From positions 53,706-73,705 of the IMG/VR virus record IMGVR_UViG_3300027541_000721: a stretch of DNA of 20,000 bases. The stretch is one strand, 5' to 3'. This stretch comes from an uncultured virus (IMG/VR IMGVR_UViG_3300027541_000721). Its lineage: Duplodnaviria; Heunggongvirae; Uroviricota; Caudoviricetes. The position numbers were made by a program, and so were the translations under genes. The stretch's first letter is position 1. Each line of letters starts with the position of its first letter. Positions 8,167 to 13,827 of the stretch are shown here, one piece after another. The notes beneath the pieces were generated by a model. It did not search any database. It was not told the origin of the DNA and was given only the letters and a program-made list of their open reading frames with translations.

Positions 8167-8834
8167 TTTGTATTTTCTTTTACGAAATGTTTGATGTATC
8201 TTACCAGAAGTTTGATGTATTTTGCAAGGTCTCTCTCCTCATAAACTACAAGTTCTCCATTTTCACAAGCCATAATTATAACTAATTTTTTTGCTTGAAT
8301 GCCTGTGAGTTCATAAAGCATACATGCATATGCAGTTGCTTGTACAAAATAGTTTTCAATCCACTCACGAGGTTTTGGTTTTTTAGAAGACTTGTAATCT
8401 ATAATAGAAATTTCACCGTCGAATTCTGCTATTGTATCAGCAGTTCCTGCAATACCAAGATATTTACTATAAAGACCTATTTCAATTCCATAGATCTTTC
8501 CAATTCTATCCAGAGCAGGTTTTATGATATTGAACAAATTAGTTGCAATTTCTGTGGTGTCTTTAGGCAAATCCTCATTTGAAATATAATGTTCAACTAA
8601 GGTGTGCATATCAGTTCCACGAGTAGTTGCTGCTTTTGTAATGCGATCAGCTTCAGCATTTCCTACTCGTCTTCTCCAATTTTCAAAAATCAAACGATTA
8701 TAGAAACTAGTAACAGATGTAATAGAAACTAAACGAAGAAGATCATCTTCGTCTGGAACTTTATAATATCTAACTCCATCAATCATCTCCCTCTCTAATG
8801 GAAGGAGATCTAATTTAACATGTTCAAATTTCAC
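8163..8834 (-). CDS. PD-(D/E)XK (RecB/Cas4-like) exonuclease
   Basis: SITSVT, WR.RVG..EA, RGT.MH, AGTAD.IAEFDG..SIIDYKSS and YFVQ..AYA; usual neighbour of phoH in cyanophages. Confidence 0.88.
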   Translation of the reverse strand: MKFEHVKLDLLPLEREMIDGVRYYKVPDEDDLLRLVSITSVTSFYNRLIFENWRRRVGNAEADRITKAATTRGTDMHTLVEHYISNEDLPKDTTEIATNLFNIIKPALDRIGKIYGIEIGLYSKYLGIAGTADTIAEFDGEISIIDYKSSKKPKPREWIENYFVQATAYACMLYELTGIQAKKLVIIMACENGELVVYEERDLAKYIKLLVRYIKHFVKENTK

Positions 8835-9592
8835 AATCCAAGTTCTCTTTTTGCTAAAATAAATTCTTTCACTAGACCGGAACGTACAATATCTTCTACT
8901 CCGAATTCAACAATATCCACTGATGGCATAATTTGCAAAACTCGAATAAAATCGTGGATTCCGTTCTTTTCGTTTGTTTTAATTAAATCACTTTGCTCAG
9001 CATCACCACTAAACATAATCTTACAGTTTTCACCAACTCTAGTAATTAGTGAAGACAATTCATGGAAATTACAGTTTTGCATCTCATCAATAATAAGAAT
9101 GCAATTATCAAAAGTAGTTCCACGTAAGAATGATGTGCTCCAAAAACTGATAGTCTCTTGTGCTTTCAAATTTCCATAAAGCATTTCAAAATCTGCTTCA
9201 GATGGAAGTTGGAACATGTATTTTACCATATTCTTATATGGTATTTCAAACAATTCGGATTTATCTTCATGCGATCCTGGAAGAAATCCGATTTCACGAG
9301 TTTGAACCAGAGATCTTATGATATAAATTTTATCATAAGATGAAACTTCATTTAAAACTTCTCTTAGTGCTTTGTAAAGAAGAACAAATGTTTTTCCACT
9401 ACCAGGAACACCATGTGCAACTATATGTTTACCCTCATCGTAAGAAGAAAATAATCTTTTTTGATTATCAGTCAATGGTTCAATATCTAAAAGCAAATCC
9501 AAATTAATTGGTTTTTTTCTTTTCATTTGCTTTGCAGTCATACCAGATCCGATTCCAGTATAATCACCACTAGTTCTTTTTCTTCTTGCCAT
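8831..9592 (-). CDS. phoH: PhoH family ATPase
   Basis: Walker A GVPGSGKT, REIGFLPG, FLRGTTFD, IIDEMQN, GD..QSD and DIVRSGLV. Likely start is MARRKR at 9592 (alternative 9607). Confidence 0.95.
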   Translation of the reverse strand: MARRKRTSGDYTGIGSGMTAKQMKRKKPINLDLLLDIEPLTDNQKRLFSSYDEGKHIVAHGVPGSGKTFVLLYKALREVLNEVSSYDKIYIIRSLVQTREIGFLPGSHEDKSELFEIPYKNMVKYMFQLPSEADFEMLYGNLKAQETISFWSTSFLRGTTFDNCILIIDEMQNCNFHELSSLITRVGENCKIMFSGDAEQSDLIKTNEKNGIHDFIRVLQIMPSVDIVEFGVEDIVRSGLVKEFILAKRELGL

Positions 9593-9599
9593 AAAATTT

Positions 9600-9851
9600 T
9601 TATCCAATTGGTTTTACTTTTGATCCAGGAACCTGAGAAACTTTACTTAGAACATCATTCCATCCAGGTTTGGATTTAACTAATTTATCTTTCCATTCTC
9701 CAACTTCACCTGGAGTTGCACATCCTTCAGACCAATCCCTCTTCCATTCAGGATTCTCTGAATACCATTGCATAATATCATTGACACTCATCTCAATGAC
9801 TTTTTTTTCACCTGTTTCTTTATGAATTATTGGATAAATTGCCAAATTCAT
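9600..9851 (-). CDS. Conserved cyanophage hypothetical protein
   Basis: YPIIHKETGEKK...MSV....W...NPEWKRDWS...PGWNDVL.KV...PGS.V. True start may be TTG 9845, after a GGAGG SD. Confidence 0.8.
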   Translation of the reverse strand: MNLAIYPIIHKETGEKKVIEMSVNDIMQWYSENPEWKRDWSEGCATPGEVGEWKDKLVKSKPGWNDVLSKVSQVPGSKVKPIG

Positions 9852-9871
9852 TCCTCCATAGTACGTAAGGA

Positions 9872-9879
9872 TATTTATT
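9872..9879 (-). promoter_or_regulatory. Late promoter AATAAATA upstream of the hypothetical-phoH operon
   Basis: NATAAATA box 20-26 nt before the start codon. Confidence 0.55.
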
Positions 9880-10033
9880 CAATGCAAATGGATGGTGCAT
9901 CATCACATTCAACACAATTTATGCACTCATCCATATCTGGATTTTCTTTAAGAAATCCTTGAAATTCTTCTTTGGTCATAAGAATTTTAAAAACATGACC
10001 AGTAAGAGTATCTTTAATACAATAAGATTTCAT
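9875..10033 (-). CDS. 52-aa Cys-rich hypothetical protein (not in the ORF track)
   Basis: Hand translation MKSYCIKDTLTGHVFKILMTKEEFQGFLKENPDMDECINCVECDDAPSICIE; fills the gap after thyX. Confidence 0.7.
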   Translation of the reverse strand: MKSYCIKDTLTGHVFKILMTKEEFQGFLKENPDMDECINCVECDDAPSICIE

Positions 10034-10058
10034 ATGATTTAATTCAAATAAACTTTAT

Positions 10059-10811
10059 TTATGGAGAAAGTCTTGCTTTATGAAGTCTCTTTTCTTCATA
10101 ATAATCCCATACATTAGGTGCCCATCTTTTAAGAATAGGTGCAATTTGTTCAGTAAGTGCTTGAATCTCAAGTTGAGCATCTAGTTTTGCTCTAAGATCC
10201 ATTAGGTGAAGAGCAGATCTGAGATTAAATGATACTACAAAATTTTGTCGGATTGCTTGTGCAAGATAATCACGAATGTGCTCTTCGCACATACCCTTTT
10301 CATACTTTACAGCATACCTTTTACAACCCTCTAAAATCCAATTAAGTTCATCATGATAATCTTCTTCTGTCCAATCATATTTTTTACCATAACGATTTAC
10401 ATAAAACCCAGGAGGACGAACGTAAAAAACATCTTCAGTATTAAGTTCCCCACTTGCAACTTTTACAACTCTTTTTCCAGTATAACGTTGTGATTGAACA
10501 TCAAAACTTACTCCCACTCTGTGAGTCCTTGCTTGCATCGCAACGTTATGGACATACCCAGAGACCGAAACGGTAATGCCAGGGTGCTCCAGAGGTCCCC
10601 AGTGACCCTTATCATTCGATAGGAGACGTTCTACAATCCATTTGCCACACCCAGATGAATTTGGAATGTCTTGAGTATGAATAGGTGTCTCAGAGTAATC
10701 ACACTTTGCTGCCTGATAAATGACTTGTTCTGGAATTGGATAGCATTGTAGCATTACTACTTCCAAATTTTTATCAAGTTCAAGAAGATCTTTTGCTTTA
10801 ATTGGTTTCAT
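10059..10811 (-). CDS. thyX: Flavin-dependent thymidylate synthase ThyX (cyanobacterial type)
   Basis: GHWGPLEH, RTHRVGVSFDVQSQRY (ThyX motif), NLRSALHLMDLR...AQLEI. Confidence 0.93.
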   Translation of the reverse strand: MKPIKAKDLLELDKNLEVVMLQCYPIPEQVIYQAAKCDYSETPIHTQDIPNSSGCGKWIVERLLSNDKGHWGPLEHPGITVSVSGYVHNVAMQARTHRVGVSFDVQSQRYTGKRVVKVASGELNTEDVFYVRPPGFYVNRYGKKYDWTEEDYHDELNWILEGCKRYAVKYEKGMCEEHIRDYLAQAIRQNFVVSFNLRSALHLMDLRAKLDAQLEIQALTEQIAPILKRWAPNVWDYYEEKRLHKARLSP

Positions 10812-10969
10812 TTTGTTCCAAATCCTTTACTAGTTTTTTTCTTATTTTCTTTCAGAAGACTTTCAATATTAATCATTTCCTTTTTCATGTACGAAAGTTC
10901 TTCATCACTATAAAGATGATCTTGCTTCAATGCTTTTTTGATCATCTTCAATATTGCCTTTTCTCTCAT
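10808..10969 (-). CDS. 53-aa hypothetical protein
   Basis: MREKAILKMIKKALKQDHLYSDEELSYMKKEM...SKGFGTK; ATGA overlap with thyX. Confidence 0.75.
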   Translation of the reverse strand: MREKAILKMIKKALKQDHLYSDEELSYMKKEMINIESLLKENKKKTSKGFGTK

Positions 10970-10975
10970 TTTTAA

Positions 10976-11128
10976 TTACTCATCGAAGATTTCATCATAG
11001 TCCATAATAGAAGAATCTACAACATAATTATCTTTTACAGTTGTTTTATCTTCAATCATTTCAAGTTTTAATTGGTTAAGTAACAACTCCATATTTTTTA
11101 TAATGAGTTTTATACGTTCTTTATCCAT
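10976..11128 (-). CDS. 50-aa hypothetical protein
   Basis: MDKERIKLIIKNMELLLNQLKLE...DYDEIFDE; directly downstream of a strong promoter. Confidence 0.75.
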   Translation of the reverse strand: MDKERIKLIIKNMELLLNQLKLEMIEDKTTVKDNYVVDSSIMDYDEIFDE

Positions 11129-11145
11129 AAATAAATGTTTTTTTA

Positions 11146-11174
11146 ATTTTACATAAAAAAAGGGGGGAAGTCAA
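11146..11174 (-). promoter_or_regulatory. Sigma70-type promoter overlapping a terminator
   Basis: TTGACT (11174-11169)-17 nt-TAAAAT (11151-11146). Confidence 0.7.
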
Positions 11175-11183
11175 GTCCCCCTT
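11155..11183 (-). terminator. Rho-independent terminator ending the riboswitch/DUF4278 unit
   Basis: AAGGGGGA-CTTGACT-TCCCCCCT followed by a T tract. Confidence 0.85.
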
Positions 11184-11187
11184 CATA

Positions 11188-11289
11188 TTATTTTGCTGCT
11201 AACAAAGTAGCAAGAGATGCTTGATGACGACGTTCTTCTTTTTGTTTTTGTTCTTTAATCAATTGAAGTACATTAATAGTTTTAATCAT
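11188..11289 (-). CDS. 33-aa basic helical peptide, translationally coupled to the DUF4278-like ORF
   Basis: MIKTINVLQLIKEQKQKEERRHQASLATLLAAK; ATGA overlap and an upstream GGAGG SD. Confidence 0.7.
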   Translation of the reverse strand: MIKTINVLQLIKEQKQKEERRHQASLATLLAAK

Positions 11290-11423
11290 TTATGTCCCTC
11301 CTTTACAAACTTAACCCCACGATAGGTCTCGTTGTATTGTTGAGGTTGTTGCATCATTTGTTGTTGATACTCAAGACGTTTTTGGGTATCATACTCGACA
11401 CCACGATAAACTACTTTAGACAT
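11286..11423 (-). CDS. DUF4278-like YRG-motif peptide (45 aa)
   Basis: MSKVVYRGVEYD...QQQMMQQPQQYNETYRGVKFVK with two YRGV motifs; AAGGAG SD; downstream of a glnA-type RNA. Confidence 0.85.
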   Translation of the reverse strand: MSKVVYRGVEYDTQKRLEYQQQMMQQPQQYNETYRGVKFVKEGHK

Positions 11424-11456
11424 TAGGGTTGCTCCTTTACTTTTTAAGGTTAGGTG

Positions 11457-11797
11457 GCGTTCCTTCCGTCGGCTTTTGCGTCCCTTAGTAGGATGAACGA
11501 CCTACTCTTTTTCCACAATAGGTATAGAAAAACATAGGCATTCCGTTCCGAGTCGGCGTACTTCCGTCCTATTTAATTTTAGCACTTTTGAATAAAATCC
11601 TTTCGGAGTTCTAATAGCAATCGGTCTTCTGTTCTTTGATTAACTACATCGTCGTTTTTAACGATGTCCATTAGTTCCCACACAGTATCACAACTAAGTT
11701 TAACTGCATATTCAGTTGCAGTTAGTTGTGAAGTAGAAAAAGAAAGAAATGGAACCCATGCTAAAAGCAAAAGTGCTTTAGCCATAGGATGAACGAT
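11457..11797 (-). ncRNA. glnA-type glutamine riboswitch, tandem or interlocked, with an ORF inside the first P2 loop
   Basis: ATCGTTCA-TCCTAT...ATAGGA-CGGAAGTA-CG...GAACG, then TCGTTCA-TCC..GGA-CGCAAAAGCCGACG-GAAGGAACGC. Shows P1 CGTTC/GAACG, E-loop AGTA/GAA, and the location upstream of a DUF4278-like gene. Confidence 0.8.
11579..11785 (-). CDS. 68-aa putative secreted or membrane-anchored protein nested inside the riboswitch
   Basis: Hydrophobic N-terminus MAKALLLLAWVPFLSFS and two Cys; the ORF nearly fills the P2 loop. Confidence 0.65.
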   Translation of the reverse strand: MAKALLLLAWVPFLSFSTSQLTATEYAVKLSCDTVWELMDIVKNDDVVNQRTEDRLLLELRKDFIQKC

Positions 11798-11803
11798 AAT
11801 TGC

Positions 11804-11832
11804 AGTATACTACCTACAATATATCTAGTCAA
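11804..11832 (-). promoter_or_regulatory. Sigma70-type promoter of the riboswitch unit
   Basis: TTGACT-17 nt-TATACT; predicted +1 at about 11797, coinciding with the 5' end of the aptamer. Confidence 0.75.
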
Positions 11833-11848
11833 TTATTTTGTAACAAAT

Positions 11849-12103
11849 TTATTTTTTCTTTTTATTTTCTTTTACTTGATATCCGTATGTTTTAGGATTT
11901 ACCGTACCAGAAGTCCAATCAATGCTTTTTACATTTCTATAATTATCATAATAATAATCAAAAATTTCTACTCTAGATCCAGATTGCACAATATCATAAA
12001 CAGGATGTTGAGCATCATCTAGATATGAAACTAAGTATGAATTTCTAGGTAACTCTTTATTTTTTGCGTAGGTTGGATCGCAATCTCTGTGAATAATGTT
12101 CAT
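11849..12103 (-). CDS. Conserved cyanophage hypothetical protein
   Basis: IIH.DCDP...KELP.NSYLV.Y...YDIV....VEIFD.YYD...WT.G..NPK; in operon context. Confidence 0.75.
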   Translation of the reverse strand: MNIIHRDCDPTYAKNKELPRNSYLVSYLDDAQHPVYDIVQSGSRVEIFDYYYDNYRNVKSIDWTSGTVNPKTYGYQVKENKKKK

Positions 12104-12110
12104 TTAAATT

Positions 12111-12728
12111 TTATCTATTAACTTCCCATGTAATATCAGGATAGGCTTCAGATACAATTTCTTTTGTAATGTTATACTTAGATTGTAATTTTTTATCTTT
12201 AACTAGACACATGATCTCTGCATCCAATGGATGTAAACCTTCTAGCATTTGAATAAACATACTTTCACGACGAAGTTTAGGAACTCCTGCATTTCCAGGA
12301 ACACCATTCTTAGACATTACAAAATTAATTAGTTTTTCATATTCAGTTCTTAATGTTGTATGTCCTGTTCTAATTTTTTCAGTATAGCTTACAGAAGAAC
12401 TTTTTTCTACTTCCATTTTTTCAACTTCTTTTCCAATCCTTTCTGAAATTGATCCAGTTTTTACTAGATCATCAGAAACTGTTCCATATGGAACTTCACC
12501 TTCAGGTAACATGGAAATTACATTATCATCAAAATTCCAAATAAAAATAGCCTTCAATGAAGGATGTTCATGTTCTTTAAGAATTTGAACTTTTTTTGCA
12601 TTCGTTCTTTGCTTACTTACCAATTGAAAAACTTCAAAAACAAAAGGATTATTTGGAAGTTTTTCAATTTTATCTACTGTTGCTTTTGTAGTAGTACTAG
12701 TTTTTTTTCTAGTTGTTGTAGAAGTCAT
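12111..12728 (-). CDS. Conserved T4-like hypothetical protein (DUF6433-like)
   Basis: LPNNPF.FEV, LKAIFIWNFD...SMLPEGEVPY, RRESMFIQMLEGLHP.DAE. Confidence 0.8.
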   Translation of the reverse strand: MTSTTTRKKTSTTTKATVDKIEKLPNNPFVFEVFQLVSKQRTNAKKVQILKEHEHPSLKAIFIWNFDDNVISMLPEGEVPYGTVSDDLVKTGSISERIGKEVEKMEVEKSSSVSYTEKIRTGHTTLRTEYEKLINFVMSKNGVPGNAGVPKLRRESMFIQMLEGLHPLDAEIMCLVKDKKLQSKYNITKEIVSEAYPDITWEVNR

Positions 12729-12763
12729 AATTGTTTCAATTCATTTGTACTATCTAGTCTAAC

Positions 12764-12997
12764 TCAATCGTCATCATCGTCATCATCTTCATTCTCAAAA
12801 TATCCATTTTCAAATCTTACTGCAAGTATTTCATCTGGCATGACGTTTCCATTTTCATCAAACATCTCAGGGTGCATGAAAATTCTTTGAGGTTGCGTCT
12901 CGTAGGAGTGTGTCTTTGCTAACCAGCCAATTACCGACCCTACACATAAAAACAAAATACTAATTAAACAAAAAATAGTGAGTTCTGCTGCTAACAT
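12764..12997 (-). CDS. Small membrane protein with an acidic tail
   Basis: N-terminal TM segment, HPEMFDENGN..PDEILAVRFEN, poly-Asp tail. Confidence 0.75.
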   Translation of the reverse strand: MLAAELTIFCLISILFLCVGSVIGWLAKTHSYETQPQRIFMHPEMFDENGNVMPDEILAVRFENGYFENEDDDDDDD

Positions 12998-13197
12998 CTT
13001 TTTTCTCCTGAGATGTTGGTTTTTCTTTTAATAAAGAATTCTATTTGAAAATTAAATTCCCATCTTAAAATAGAAAATTTTTTTTTCAAACTAAATTTCT
13101 TACTTTTATTTTGTTCCCTTTTAGTTTTCTCCCTATGAAGCAGTAGTTCGACTCCACGATTTCTTTCGTGAATACTATTATTTAGATCTATCATCAA
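12991..13197 (-). CDS. Hypothetical protein
   Basis: 68-aa ORF (NRGVELLL) overlapping both neighbours. Confidence 0.6.
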   Translation of the reverse strand: MMIDLNNSIHERNRGVELLLHREKTKREQNKSKKFSLKKKFSILRWEFNFQIEFFIKRKTNISGEKRC

Positions 13198-13445
13198 AGA
13201 AGATTATTTTCTTGCAGATATTTAACCGTATCTACACATCCACCAAGATGCTCAGTATCGTTCATAATAATTTGTGGGAAAGTAGATCCTTGTCCAAATT
13301 CTGCATAAAACTCTTCTGCAGTAAAATCTGTACCCAATTCATAACAAATTACAGGAGTTCCTCTCTTAATACTTAAATCTCCAAGAACCATTTTAATTTT
13401 GTCACAGAATGGACATCCAAGTTTTGAATAAATTGTAAAATTCAT
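13194..13445 (-). CDS. nrdC: Glutaredoxin (NrdC-like)
   Basis: YSK.GCPFC active site, TFPQI, LGGCVD. Confidence 0.9.
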   Translation of the reverse strand: MNFTIYSKLGCPFCDKIKMVLGDLSIKRGTPVICYELGTDFTAEEFYAEFGQGSTFPQIIMNDTEHLGGCVDTVKYLQENNLL

Positions 13446-13452
13446 AGTAATT

Positions 13453-13827
13453 TTAAATTGCTGTATTGTTTTTACGTGGTCTATAAACTCTCAATTCTTG
13501 TTTAGAAAGTTGAGTCCTCCATTCTACTATATCACTGTATCTTTGCAATGTAAAGAACTCCTGTCTGCGAAACCAAGTTTCCCAATTTTCATGTGCTTTA
13601 GATCGATTACACTTTTCACATGCACATATAACATTCGTTAAATGATCAGTTCCACCTTTAGATTGTGGAATTATATGATCCATTGTTAAATTTTCATCAG
13701 ATTTACAATAAGCACATTTGTACTCCCATTTTTCTTTAATTGAATTTTTCCATAATCTTCTAGATTCAGATGTTGAAGAAGTTTCAAGATTATACAAATA
13801 ATCTTCTGAAGAATTGTAGAGTTGCAT
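13453..13827 (-). CDS. HNH endonuclease family protein (McrA-like)
   Basis: CAYC...LTMDHIIPQSKGG....NVICACEKCN.SK. Confidence 0.9.
   Translation of the reverse strand: MQLYNSSEDYLYNLETSSTSESRRLWKNSIKEKWEYKCAYCKSDENLTMDHIIPQSKGGTDHLTNVICACEKCNRSKAHENWETWFRRQEFFTLQRYSDIVEWRTQLSKQELRVYRPRKNNTAI

Follow-up and report, generated by a model that had tools for sequence, protein, structure and literature searches.

The window, i.e., the whole 20,000-nucleotide stretch of viral DNA analyzed here, includes a typical T4-like cyanophage region (8831-13827) in which the genes are all on the minus strand and code for PhoH (128.6 bits), ThyX/Thy1 (121.9 bits), a DUF6433 protein (121.1 bits), a glutaredoxin (35.0 bits) and an HNH endonuclease (51.5 bits). 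Within this region lies a unit of about 670 nt, running from a promoter-like site to a terminator-like hairpin, which comprises a leader RNA with approximate outer bounds 11797-11455 (-). The earlier note had given the interval 11572-11457 as the whole feature; the element is larger, its true 5' boundary being at 11797, and the 5' half of its unit 1 (CGUUCA-UCCUAU, 11795-11784) is outside that interval. Unit 1 had seemed to be devoid of a 5' half because the interval starts at the P2a 3' strand; a 68-codon ORF lies between UCCUAU and AUAGGA. The leader is present as a single copy in the 73.7-kb record of this virus, and its features are as follows.

11832-11804 (-): promoter-like site, TTGACT (11832-11827), 17-nt spacer, TATACT (11809-11804); 10 of 12 consensus matches
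11795-11791 (-): CGUUC(1), outer P1 5' strand, the same in 98 of 98 compact relatives; predicted partner GAACG(2), 11462-11458
between CGUUC(1) and the P2a 5' strand (-): single A, junction base
11789-11784 (-): P2a 5' strand UCCUAU, partner AUAGGA (11572-11567); overlapped by the AUG (11785-11783) of the 68-codon ORF
11785-11579 (-): 68-codon ORF within P2a; its N-terminus is hydrophobic and resembles a signal peptide, and two Cys are conserved
11572-11567 (-): P2a 3' strand AUAGGA, read from the sequence
11566-11559 (-): J1 CGGAAGUA, contributing the outer linchpin G (11564) and AGUA, one half of the E-loop; matches RF01739 consensus positions
11558-11551 (-): S1 CGCCGACU, the 8 nt after AGUA; shared-helix strand, antiparallel to S2 from covariation
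11550-11544 (-): CG and GAACG(1), inner P1' 3'-type strand; predicted partner CGUUC(2), set by inner linchpin covariation
11543-11500 (-): 44-nt linker capping the inner P1'; G11543, its first base, completes the inner linchpin, and the remainder is a 16-bp hairpin insertion
11499-11495 (-): CGUUC(2), inner P1' 5'-type strand
11493-11481 (-): P2b hairpin, UCCU, loop ACUAA, GGGA; aligned to P2 of RF01739
11480-11475 (-): J2 CGCAAA, with the inner linchpin C (11478) and no AGUA; covaries with the first linker nucleotide
11474-11467 (-): S2 AGCCGACG, the 8 nt before GAAGG; second shared-helix strand, from covariation
11466-11457 (-): GAAG, GAACG(2) and linchpin C (11457); GAA half of the E-loop and outer P1 3' strand
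11459-11423 (-): putative expression platform, in which GC..CCU (11459-11452) could pair with AGG.GC of the Shine-Dalgarno AGGAGC (11437-11432)
11423-11286 (-): 45-codon ORF with two YRG motifs, DUF4278-like (IF17-like), the likely regulated gene; PF14105 at 19.1 bits, E 0.0017, below the Pfam cut-off of 25.3
11289-11188 (-): 33-codon ORF, starting 1 nt before the end of the DUF4278-like ORF (overlapping ATGA)
11181-11163 (-): terminator-like hairpin and T run, 3' of the 33-codon ORF

The observation made in the earlier note was partly confirmed. AGUA (11562-11559) and GAAG-GAACGC (11466-11457) are located precisely as it claimed, and the two GAACG strands that it counted are present (11548-11544 and 11462-11458, both (-)). 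It had also placed two CGTTC strands inside 11457-11572, where only one is found (11499-11495 (-)); the second (11795-11791) is 215 nt upstream and the count of two is valid for the whole element only.

Promoter-like sites of the quality of that preceding the leader number five in the region for 3.8 expected, which makes this site weak alone. In relatives, TATAAT-type boxes are found equally far from CGUUCA, and a start about 7 nt downstream of TATACT would put the RNA 5' end beside the outer P1. Short palindromes are also centered on the TATAAT boxes of relatives. The consensus of NtcA boxes is GTA-N8-TAC; the search for such a box in the window returned only GTA-N7-TAC (GTAGGTAGTATAC, 11817-11805 (-)), a palindrome-like site one base short which overlaps the -10 box. 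RNA-library contigs from two studies cover 11147/11166-11672, libraries which may hold DNA, so that these contigs show neither transcript ends nor expression. Environmental RNA-library contigs also carry alternative versions of the leader at 11482-11543 (linker and P2b) and at 11678-11751 (inside the P2a ORF); their presence within the same libraries indicates that related phage variants co-occur in those samples.

Downstream of the aptamer region, the pairing of the anti-Shine-Dalgarno is weak in the window (-4.8 kcal/mol), and the common relatives have a 7-bp anti-Shine-Dalgarno helix in which the 7 nt from the linchpin C pair with the Shine-Dalgarno. By analogy with characterized members of the class, we infer that glutamine-stabilized closure of the outer P1 and of the linchpin would free the ribosome site. 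The leader is thus likely a glutamine ON switch for the DUF4278 (IF17-like) peptide, the leader of the IF17 gene (gifB) being described as such a switch (PMC6212724). Directly 5' of the start codon, CCUAAUG (11430-11424 (-)) is nearly invariant in relatives and pairs with the AGG of GAAGG in minimum-energy folds.

Relatives of the leader and ORFs enclosed by P2

Relatives were collected by a scan for the unit 1 pattern, which retrieved at least 120 viral contigs, and by three variant-enriched scans, which retrieved 85 loci (about half of them unrelated), at least 120 loci, and one unrelated match, the only match given by a scan dedicated to a variant at the second S1 position. Unrelated coding DNA, i.e., about half of the 85 loci and three of the six matches in a genome collection, was dropped, as no CGTTCA followed. 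Altogether, 291 tandem-positive locus records were obtained, both halves being parsed in 280 of them (some contigs were fetched twice) and 189 being distinct, and 98 distinct compact leaders were aligned (alignment A1). As these scans were enriched for variants, the class frequencies given below are not natural ones.

The same architecture recurs in at least 280 viral-contig locus records and in 151 named phage records. The latter, all cyanophages matched by a compact-leader query, include S-PM2, S-CREM1, Bellamy, P-TIM68, P-SSM7 and S-CAM7; the S-CREM1 record annotates the leader as one glnA riboswitch. A BLAST search of the window's own leader against named phages matched four records, over the 3' half and the ORF only. 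The three genuine matches in the genome collection come from small MAG contigs assigned to bins that are not cyanobacterial, and no leader was found in a cyanobacterium of this collection. These MAGs (L330, L331 and L334), labelled Acetobacteraceae, Bacteroidota and Acidimicrobiaceae, carry a cyanophage cassette on contigs of 3.8-12 kb and are probably phage contigs wrongly binned.

In compact relatives, the leader is about 90-100 nt long, and the linker of most relatives is reduced to GAU (3 nt). The linker of the window was found unchanged in five viral contigs, and two further loci (L028 and L091) have a different hairpin at the same spot. The P2 hairpin module UUCGCUAUUCGCAAAUAGCGAA is the P2 of unit 2 in most leaders and that of unit 1 in others (e.g., L046 vs. 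L004), which suggests, as judged from these sequences, an exchange of hairpins between the two cores. The motif CGCAAA is also present in the common P2b loop of relatives.

The 68-codon ORF has no match in Pfam. It belongs to a family of 37 distinct proteins of 66-69 residues with conserved motifs, encoded at the unit 1 position in 51 loci, which start with MTKALLLLAWVPLLS... (signal-peptide-like) and share the motif SCD..WELMDIVKNDDV...EDRLLLELRKD..KC; CGTTCATCCTATG, in the region of the P2a 5' strand, is identical in 51 of 51 ORF-carrying relatives. A second family, of 86 distinct proteins of 50-57 residues, is found inside the P2 of unit 2 in other phages; its last residues (IDAKAD) are specified by nucleotides of the aptamer core, and its stop codon lies in S2. 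Both families occur together in some leaders, with start codons within the P2 strand. Judging from this conservation, the ORFs inside P2 are real genes.

The shared helix and the pairing of the P1 strands

The two 8-nt segments S1 and S2, which follow AGUA in unit 1 and precede GAAGG in unit 2, could pair within their own units or with each other. In the commonest class, S1 and S2 are both AGCCGACU, which is compatible with 2-bp hairpins (CCGA loop) as well as with S1:S2 pairing. The variant classes are the following.

Window's class: S1 CGCCGACU, S2 AGCCGACG
Large class: S1 AGCCGACG, S2 CGCCGACU
Other class: S1 GGCCGACG, S2 CGCCGACU
Other class: S1 AGACAACG, S2 CGUUGACU
Other class: S1 GGUUAACG, S2 CGUUAAUU

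In all of them, the cross-unit pairs are kept and the within-unit pairs are broken (A.G, C.U, G.G). Across the approximately 280 related leaders compared, which come from viral contigs as well as from named cyanophages, the cross-unit pairs covary (U:A/G:C/A:U and A:U/C:G/G:U). Among the 98 compact leaders, S1 position 8 and S2 position 1 form G:C in 59 and U:A in 39, none being unpaired, and S1 position 1 and S2 position 8 form A:U in 83, G:U in eight and C:G in six, with one other combination. In this alignment, the cross-unit structure pairs 79.3% of cells, with a covariation score of 0.158 vs. 0.046 in shuffles (reached by 0 of 500), and sliding the partners by one to three columns lowers the score to 0.013 or less. 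The within-unit 2-bp P3 hairpins pair 46.1% of cells, are unpaired at the outer pair of each unit in 65 of the 98 leaders, and have a covariation score of 0.006, equalled by 500 of 500 shuffles.

Independent contrasts were drawn on a tree built with FastTree from the 220 nt that follow the leader in the 189 distinct records. A change at S1 position 8 is matched at S2 position 1 in 18 of 19 contrasts and opposed in none (p = 7.6e-6), and one at S1 position 1 is matched at S2 position 8 in five of six; within-unit partners changed in the same way in none of the contrasts. The tree is limited to these 220 nt, and recombination could raise the number of contrasts counted. Divergent marine phages provide further variants, with A:U at position 8 with position 1 in P-TIM68, U:A at position 4 with position 5 in S-CAM7, and 5-nt segments in Bellamy (AGUCG and CGACU) which are perfect cross-unit complements and cannot form hairpins alone. 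One viral locus (L142) has a perfect 8-bp helix (GGUUAACG/CGUUAAUU), and two exceptions have one mismatch each (C.C at the first pair in L162, A.C in L214).

Overall, six of the eight positions of the shared helix pair in 276-280 of the 280 records. Positions 3 and 6, paired in eight and 24 of the 280, are conserved C.A and A.C mismatches. These mismatches (11556, 11553, 11472 and 11469 in the window) are kept in about 255-263 of the 280, and Watson-Crick variants exist; the middle of the helix may be an internal loop, and the conserved C.A/A.C may be a tertiary or protonation-dependent feature.

The earlier note had proposed that the neighbors of the E-loop pair between units, and CG 11558-11557 is indeed complementary to CG 11468-11467. 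Its TCGG:CCGA register (11551-11548 with 11472-11469) has to be replaced, as the pairing supported by relatives is shifted and uninterrupted, joining 11558-11551 to 11474-11467. The former register would create a G.A mismatch in the large class, in which S1 ends with CG, and is impossible in Bellamy.

As both CGUUC and both GAACG strands do not vary at all among the 98 compact relatives, the choice of P1 partners rests on the linchpins and on the E-loop and not on P1 covariation; the partner of CGUUC(1), in particular, was assigned by this logic. Both solved classes require the linchpin as a defining pair, G23-C60 in type 1 (PMC6212724) and C19:G41 in type 2 (PMC6698751). Unit 1 carries CGG at its junction and unit 2 CGC. 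GAACG(1) is followed by G in 251 of 280 records, and GAACG(2) by C in all 280. In the nested assignment, all 98 compact leaders have G:C as the outer linchpin (G11564:C11457 in the window) and the inner linchpin (C11478:G11543 in the window) is G:C in 85, C:G in four and otherwise in nine. In the side-by-side assignment, the two linchpins are paired in 5% and 4% of the leaders and mismatched in 93 and 94 of the 98.

Compensatory changes are found at both linchpins. In six loci the inner pair is switched, J2 being CGG and the linker starting with C, and the inner linchpin covaries in four of four independent contrasts, which are too few for significance; the outer linchpin is C:G in the marine phages Bellamy, P-TIM68 and S-CAM7, with J1 CGC and G after GAACG(2). 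Exceptions at the inner linchpin are a 4-nt linker with A or U as its first base and G as its third (23 of 280 records), and a J2 CGA (two of 280). In sum, the aligned sequences support an outer P1 formed by CGUUC(1) with GAACG(2) and an inner P1' formed by GAACG(1) with CGUUC(2).

Folding energies support the nested pairing in nearest-neighbor models and do not decide it. Unconstrained minimum-energy folds have the nested P1 topology in four of five leaders, including the window, and enforced side-by-side folds are 2-3 kcal/mol below the nested ones. A feature counting against nesting is the 3-nt loop of most relatives, sterically tight with its first base in the linchpin. In the window, the linker had been proposed to cap a permuted GAACG/CGUUC helix, and it does so in the predicted fold, in which 11548-11495 forms one extended hairpin (-17.8 kcal/mol, z = -3.91) whose energy is equalled by 0 of 200 shuffles.

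The probable nested fold and its alternatives

At gathering thresholds, the window has no match in Rfam. In an E-value search, unit 2 alone was matched in the leader, by RF01739 (Glutamine) with 27.8 bits for a cut-off of 35 and by RF01704 (Glutamine-II) with 15.2 bits for a cut-off of 33. The other matches of this search, to the AilA thermometer and to NmsRb, were attributed to chance. Among five compact relatives searched with RF01739, unit 2 alone scores 34.6-40.1 bits in four and unit 1 alone 22.8-24.4 bits in the three reporting it. In the locus L043, the best alignment (39.6 bits) joins the 5' half of unit 1 to the 3' half of unit 2 across a 57-nt P3 insert, so that it is the combined halves which best match the consensus CGUUCA-P2-CGGAAGUA-P3-GAAGGAACGC.

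The hallmarks of RF01739 were compared with the leader. P1 CGUUC/GAACG, the helix that makes the ligand pocket in this class, is present with two copies of each strand, and the long-range G:C linchpin, which joins J23 to the nucleotide following P1, corresponds to G11564:C11457. The AGUA (11562-11559) and GAA (11466-11464) strands of the E-loop come together across units only, neither unit having both, and the local P3 hairpin of the consensus (3 bp and a tetraloop) is replaced by the inter-unit helix; the score in the window stays below 35 bits. As for RF01704, its pseudoknot between a 5' CGUUC and a GAACG in the loop of the second hairpin is absent, since GAACG(1) is 5' of CGUUC(2) and would form a plain hairpin with it, although the inner core has CGC.

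Covariation in the alignment thus shows a nested secondary structure, and it is probable that the locus encodes one leader RNA with two glutamine-sensor cores, one folded inside the other around a shared helix. The outer core would be a canonical type-1 (glnA) three-way junction made of CGUUC(1):GAACG(2), P2a, the cross-unit E-loop and G11564:C11457. Its P2a would close around the 68-codon ORF, and its P3 would not be a hairpin but the 8-bp helix S1 (11558-11551):S2 (11474-11467), with the inner core on the far end. This inner core would be a circularly permuted type-1 junction in which P1' is capped by the linker, P3 is open and the E-loop is missing, with the predicted strand order P3-3', CG, P1-3', loop, P1-5', A, P2, CGCAAA, P3-5'. 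Glutamine binding is predicted to lock the outer P1 and the linchpin C, which would otherwise help to sequester the Shine-Dalgarno, and to turn on, as extrapolated from the gifB riboswitch, the translation of the DUF4278 peptide. Closure of the outer P1 would have to await the formation of both the inner domain and the shared helix, which would couple the two sites structurally.

The interpretation at the core of the earlier note, an interlocked composite fold, is supported by these comparisons: cross-unit covariation is present and within-unit pairing fails, which favors one nested, domain-swapped fold over two independent aptamers, and the E-loop is predicted to be built across units, with AGUA in unit 1, GAA in unit 2 and S1:S2 joining them. 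The second pocket that it suggested is probably not one for a variant ligand, as the inner core retains every glutamine-contacting nucleotide of the type-2 structure. These contacts are made by C1, G2, C39, G40, G18 and the long-range pair (PMC6698751), and the corresponding nucleotides are present in both cores. Glutamine binding by both is accordingly what we infer from conserved contact nucleotides, and for the inner core a second glutamine site appears more likely than a site for a different ligand.

Other arrangements would account for part of these data. The leader could be a two-state switch in which S1:S2 remains constant and glutamine selects between side-by-side and nested P1 pairings, for which it can be argued that both pairs of P1 strands are identical in sequence, that the enforced folds differ by only 2-3 kcal/mol and that GAACG(1), transcribed before CGUUC(2), can pair first with CGUUC(1). 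However, with the side-by-side linchpins mismatched in nearly all the compact leaders, the known pocket would be impossible in that state, which could only be ligand-free, and no sequence feature specifically conserves it; such a switch is unlikely. Two independent side-by-side aptamers, each with its own P1 and with kissing P3 regions (a pseudoknotted, dimer-like contact), are quite improbable. S1:S2 covariation alone is silent on which P1 strands pair, a domain exchange occurs in the type-2 crystal (PMC6698751), and surveys class such leaders as tandem (PMC9481103), but the linchpin pairs fit the nested assignment only. Moreover, unit 1 has no GAA strand and unit 2 no AGUA strand beside its own P1, and the linker is reduced to 3 nt in most leaders, its first base being the nearly constant G (251 of 280 records).

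It could also be argued that the outer type-1 aptamer is the sole glutamine sensor and the inner element a structured P3 insertion, i.e., a decayed duplicate without ligand, given that it has no E-loop, that only a very short loop closes its P1' and that the P1' loop of the window tolerates a 44-nt hairpin. A decayed element should drift, whereas CGUUCA, the CG of J2 and GGAACG are invariant in 98 of 98 leaders and the inner linchpin covaries (in all the contrasts and in the six switched loci), which counts against decay and leaves this reading very improbable.

Relation to known glutamine riboswitches and significance

The outer core resembles RF01739, as represented by the Synechocystis gifB/IF17 leader and the Synechococcus crystal construct, in its CGUUC/GAACG P1 with an A between P1 and P2, its CGGAAGUA...GAAG E-loop, its G:C linchpin, its downstream DUF4278-type gene and its linchpin C overlapping the anti-Shine-Dalgarno. 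In the type-1 structure, the E-loop is formed by 23-GAAGUAA-29 with 50-UGAAGC-55, and P3 begins in the crystal construct with AG...CU beside the E-loop (PMC5393176). In contrast, the P3 of the leader is a helix with a nested second core, and its P2 encloses a 68-codon ORF. With RF01704 (type 2, Downstream-peptide), the inner core shares CGC, a long-range C:G pair like C19:G41 and the absence of an E-loop (PMC6698751), as well as a position ahead of DUF4278-type peptides. Unlike RF01704, the inner core has no pseudoknot between the 5' end and a hairpin loop, and its strands follow each other as in a circularly permuted type-1 junction.

Of tandem glutamine riboswitches, a 2022 review counts 157 doublets and four triplets, which it calls pseudo-cooperative (PMC9481103). 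As in the leader described here, two aptamer-like units succeed each other in one leader, and the phage leaders are probably among these counts. Published tandems are filed in this review under multiple expression platforms, i.e., as independent units (PMC9481103), whereas the phage leader would have a shared helix, exchanged P1 strands and a single expression platform. Another parallel is the tandem glycine riboswitch, in which two structurally interdependent amino-acid-binding domains are likewise found in one leader with one expression platform. Its domains are complete, side by side and docked by tertiary contacts. In the phage leader, unlike in the glycine riboswitch, the domains would be nested and have a Watson-Crick helix in common.

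In the accessible literature, no prior description was found of a nested, permuted or shared-helix glutamine riboswitch. Nor was a natural riboswitch with a circularly permuted core in the P3 of a canonical one found described there. A 2017 survey mentions only two glutamine aptamers in phage genomes (cyanophages) and states that phages rarely use riboswitches (PMC5473149). With 151 named cyanophage records and hundreds of viral contigs, the nested leader is common in phages.

Glutamine riboswitches are a solved and well-studied class, in which the frequent tandem arrangements have been regarded as pairs of independent switches. The compact form of the nested leader (about 90-100 nt) offers a small system for studying coupled ligand sites in RNA, and an ORF inside an aptamer hairpin is an unusual overlap of coding and sensing. 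With the P2 of one core covering a start codon, ribosomes on the enclosed gene and glutamine might compete for the RNA. Tentatively, the two cores at the ends of one helix might form a natural, cooperative (digital) two-site glutamine sensor, the product of a circularly permuted aptamer having been nested in its parent, in which, through this competition, one leader would set the ratio of two phage micro-proteins according to the nitrogen status of the host.
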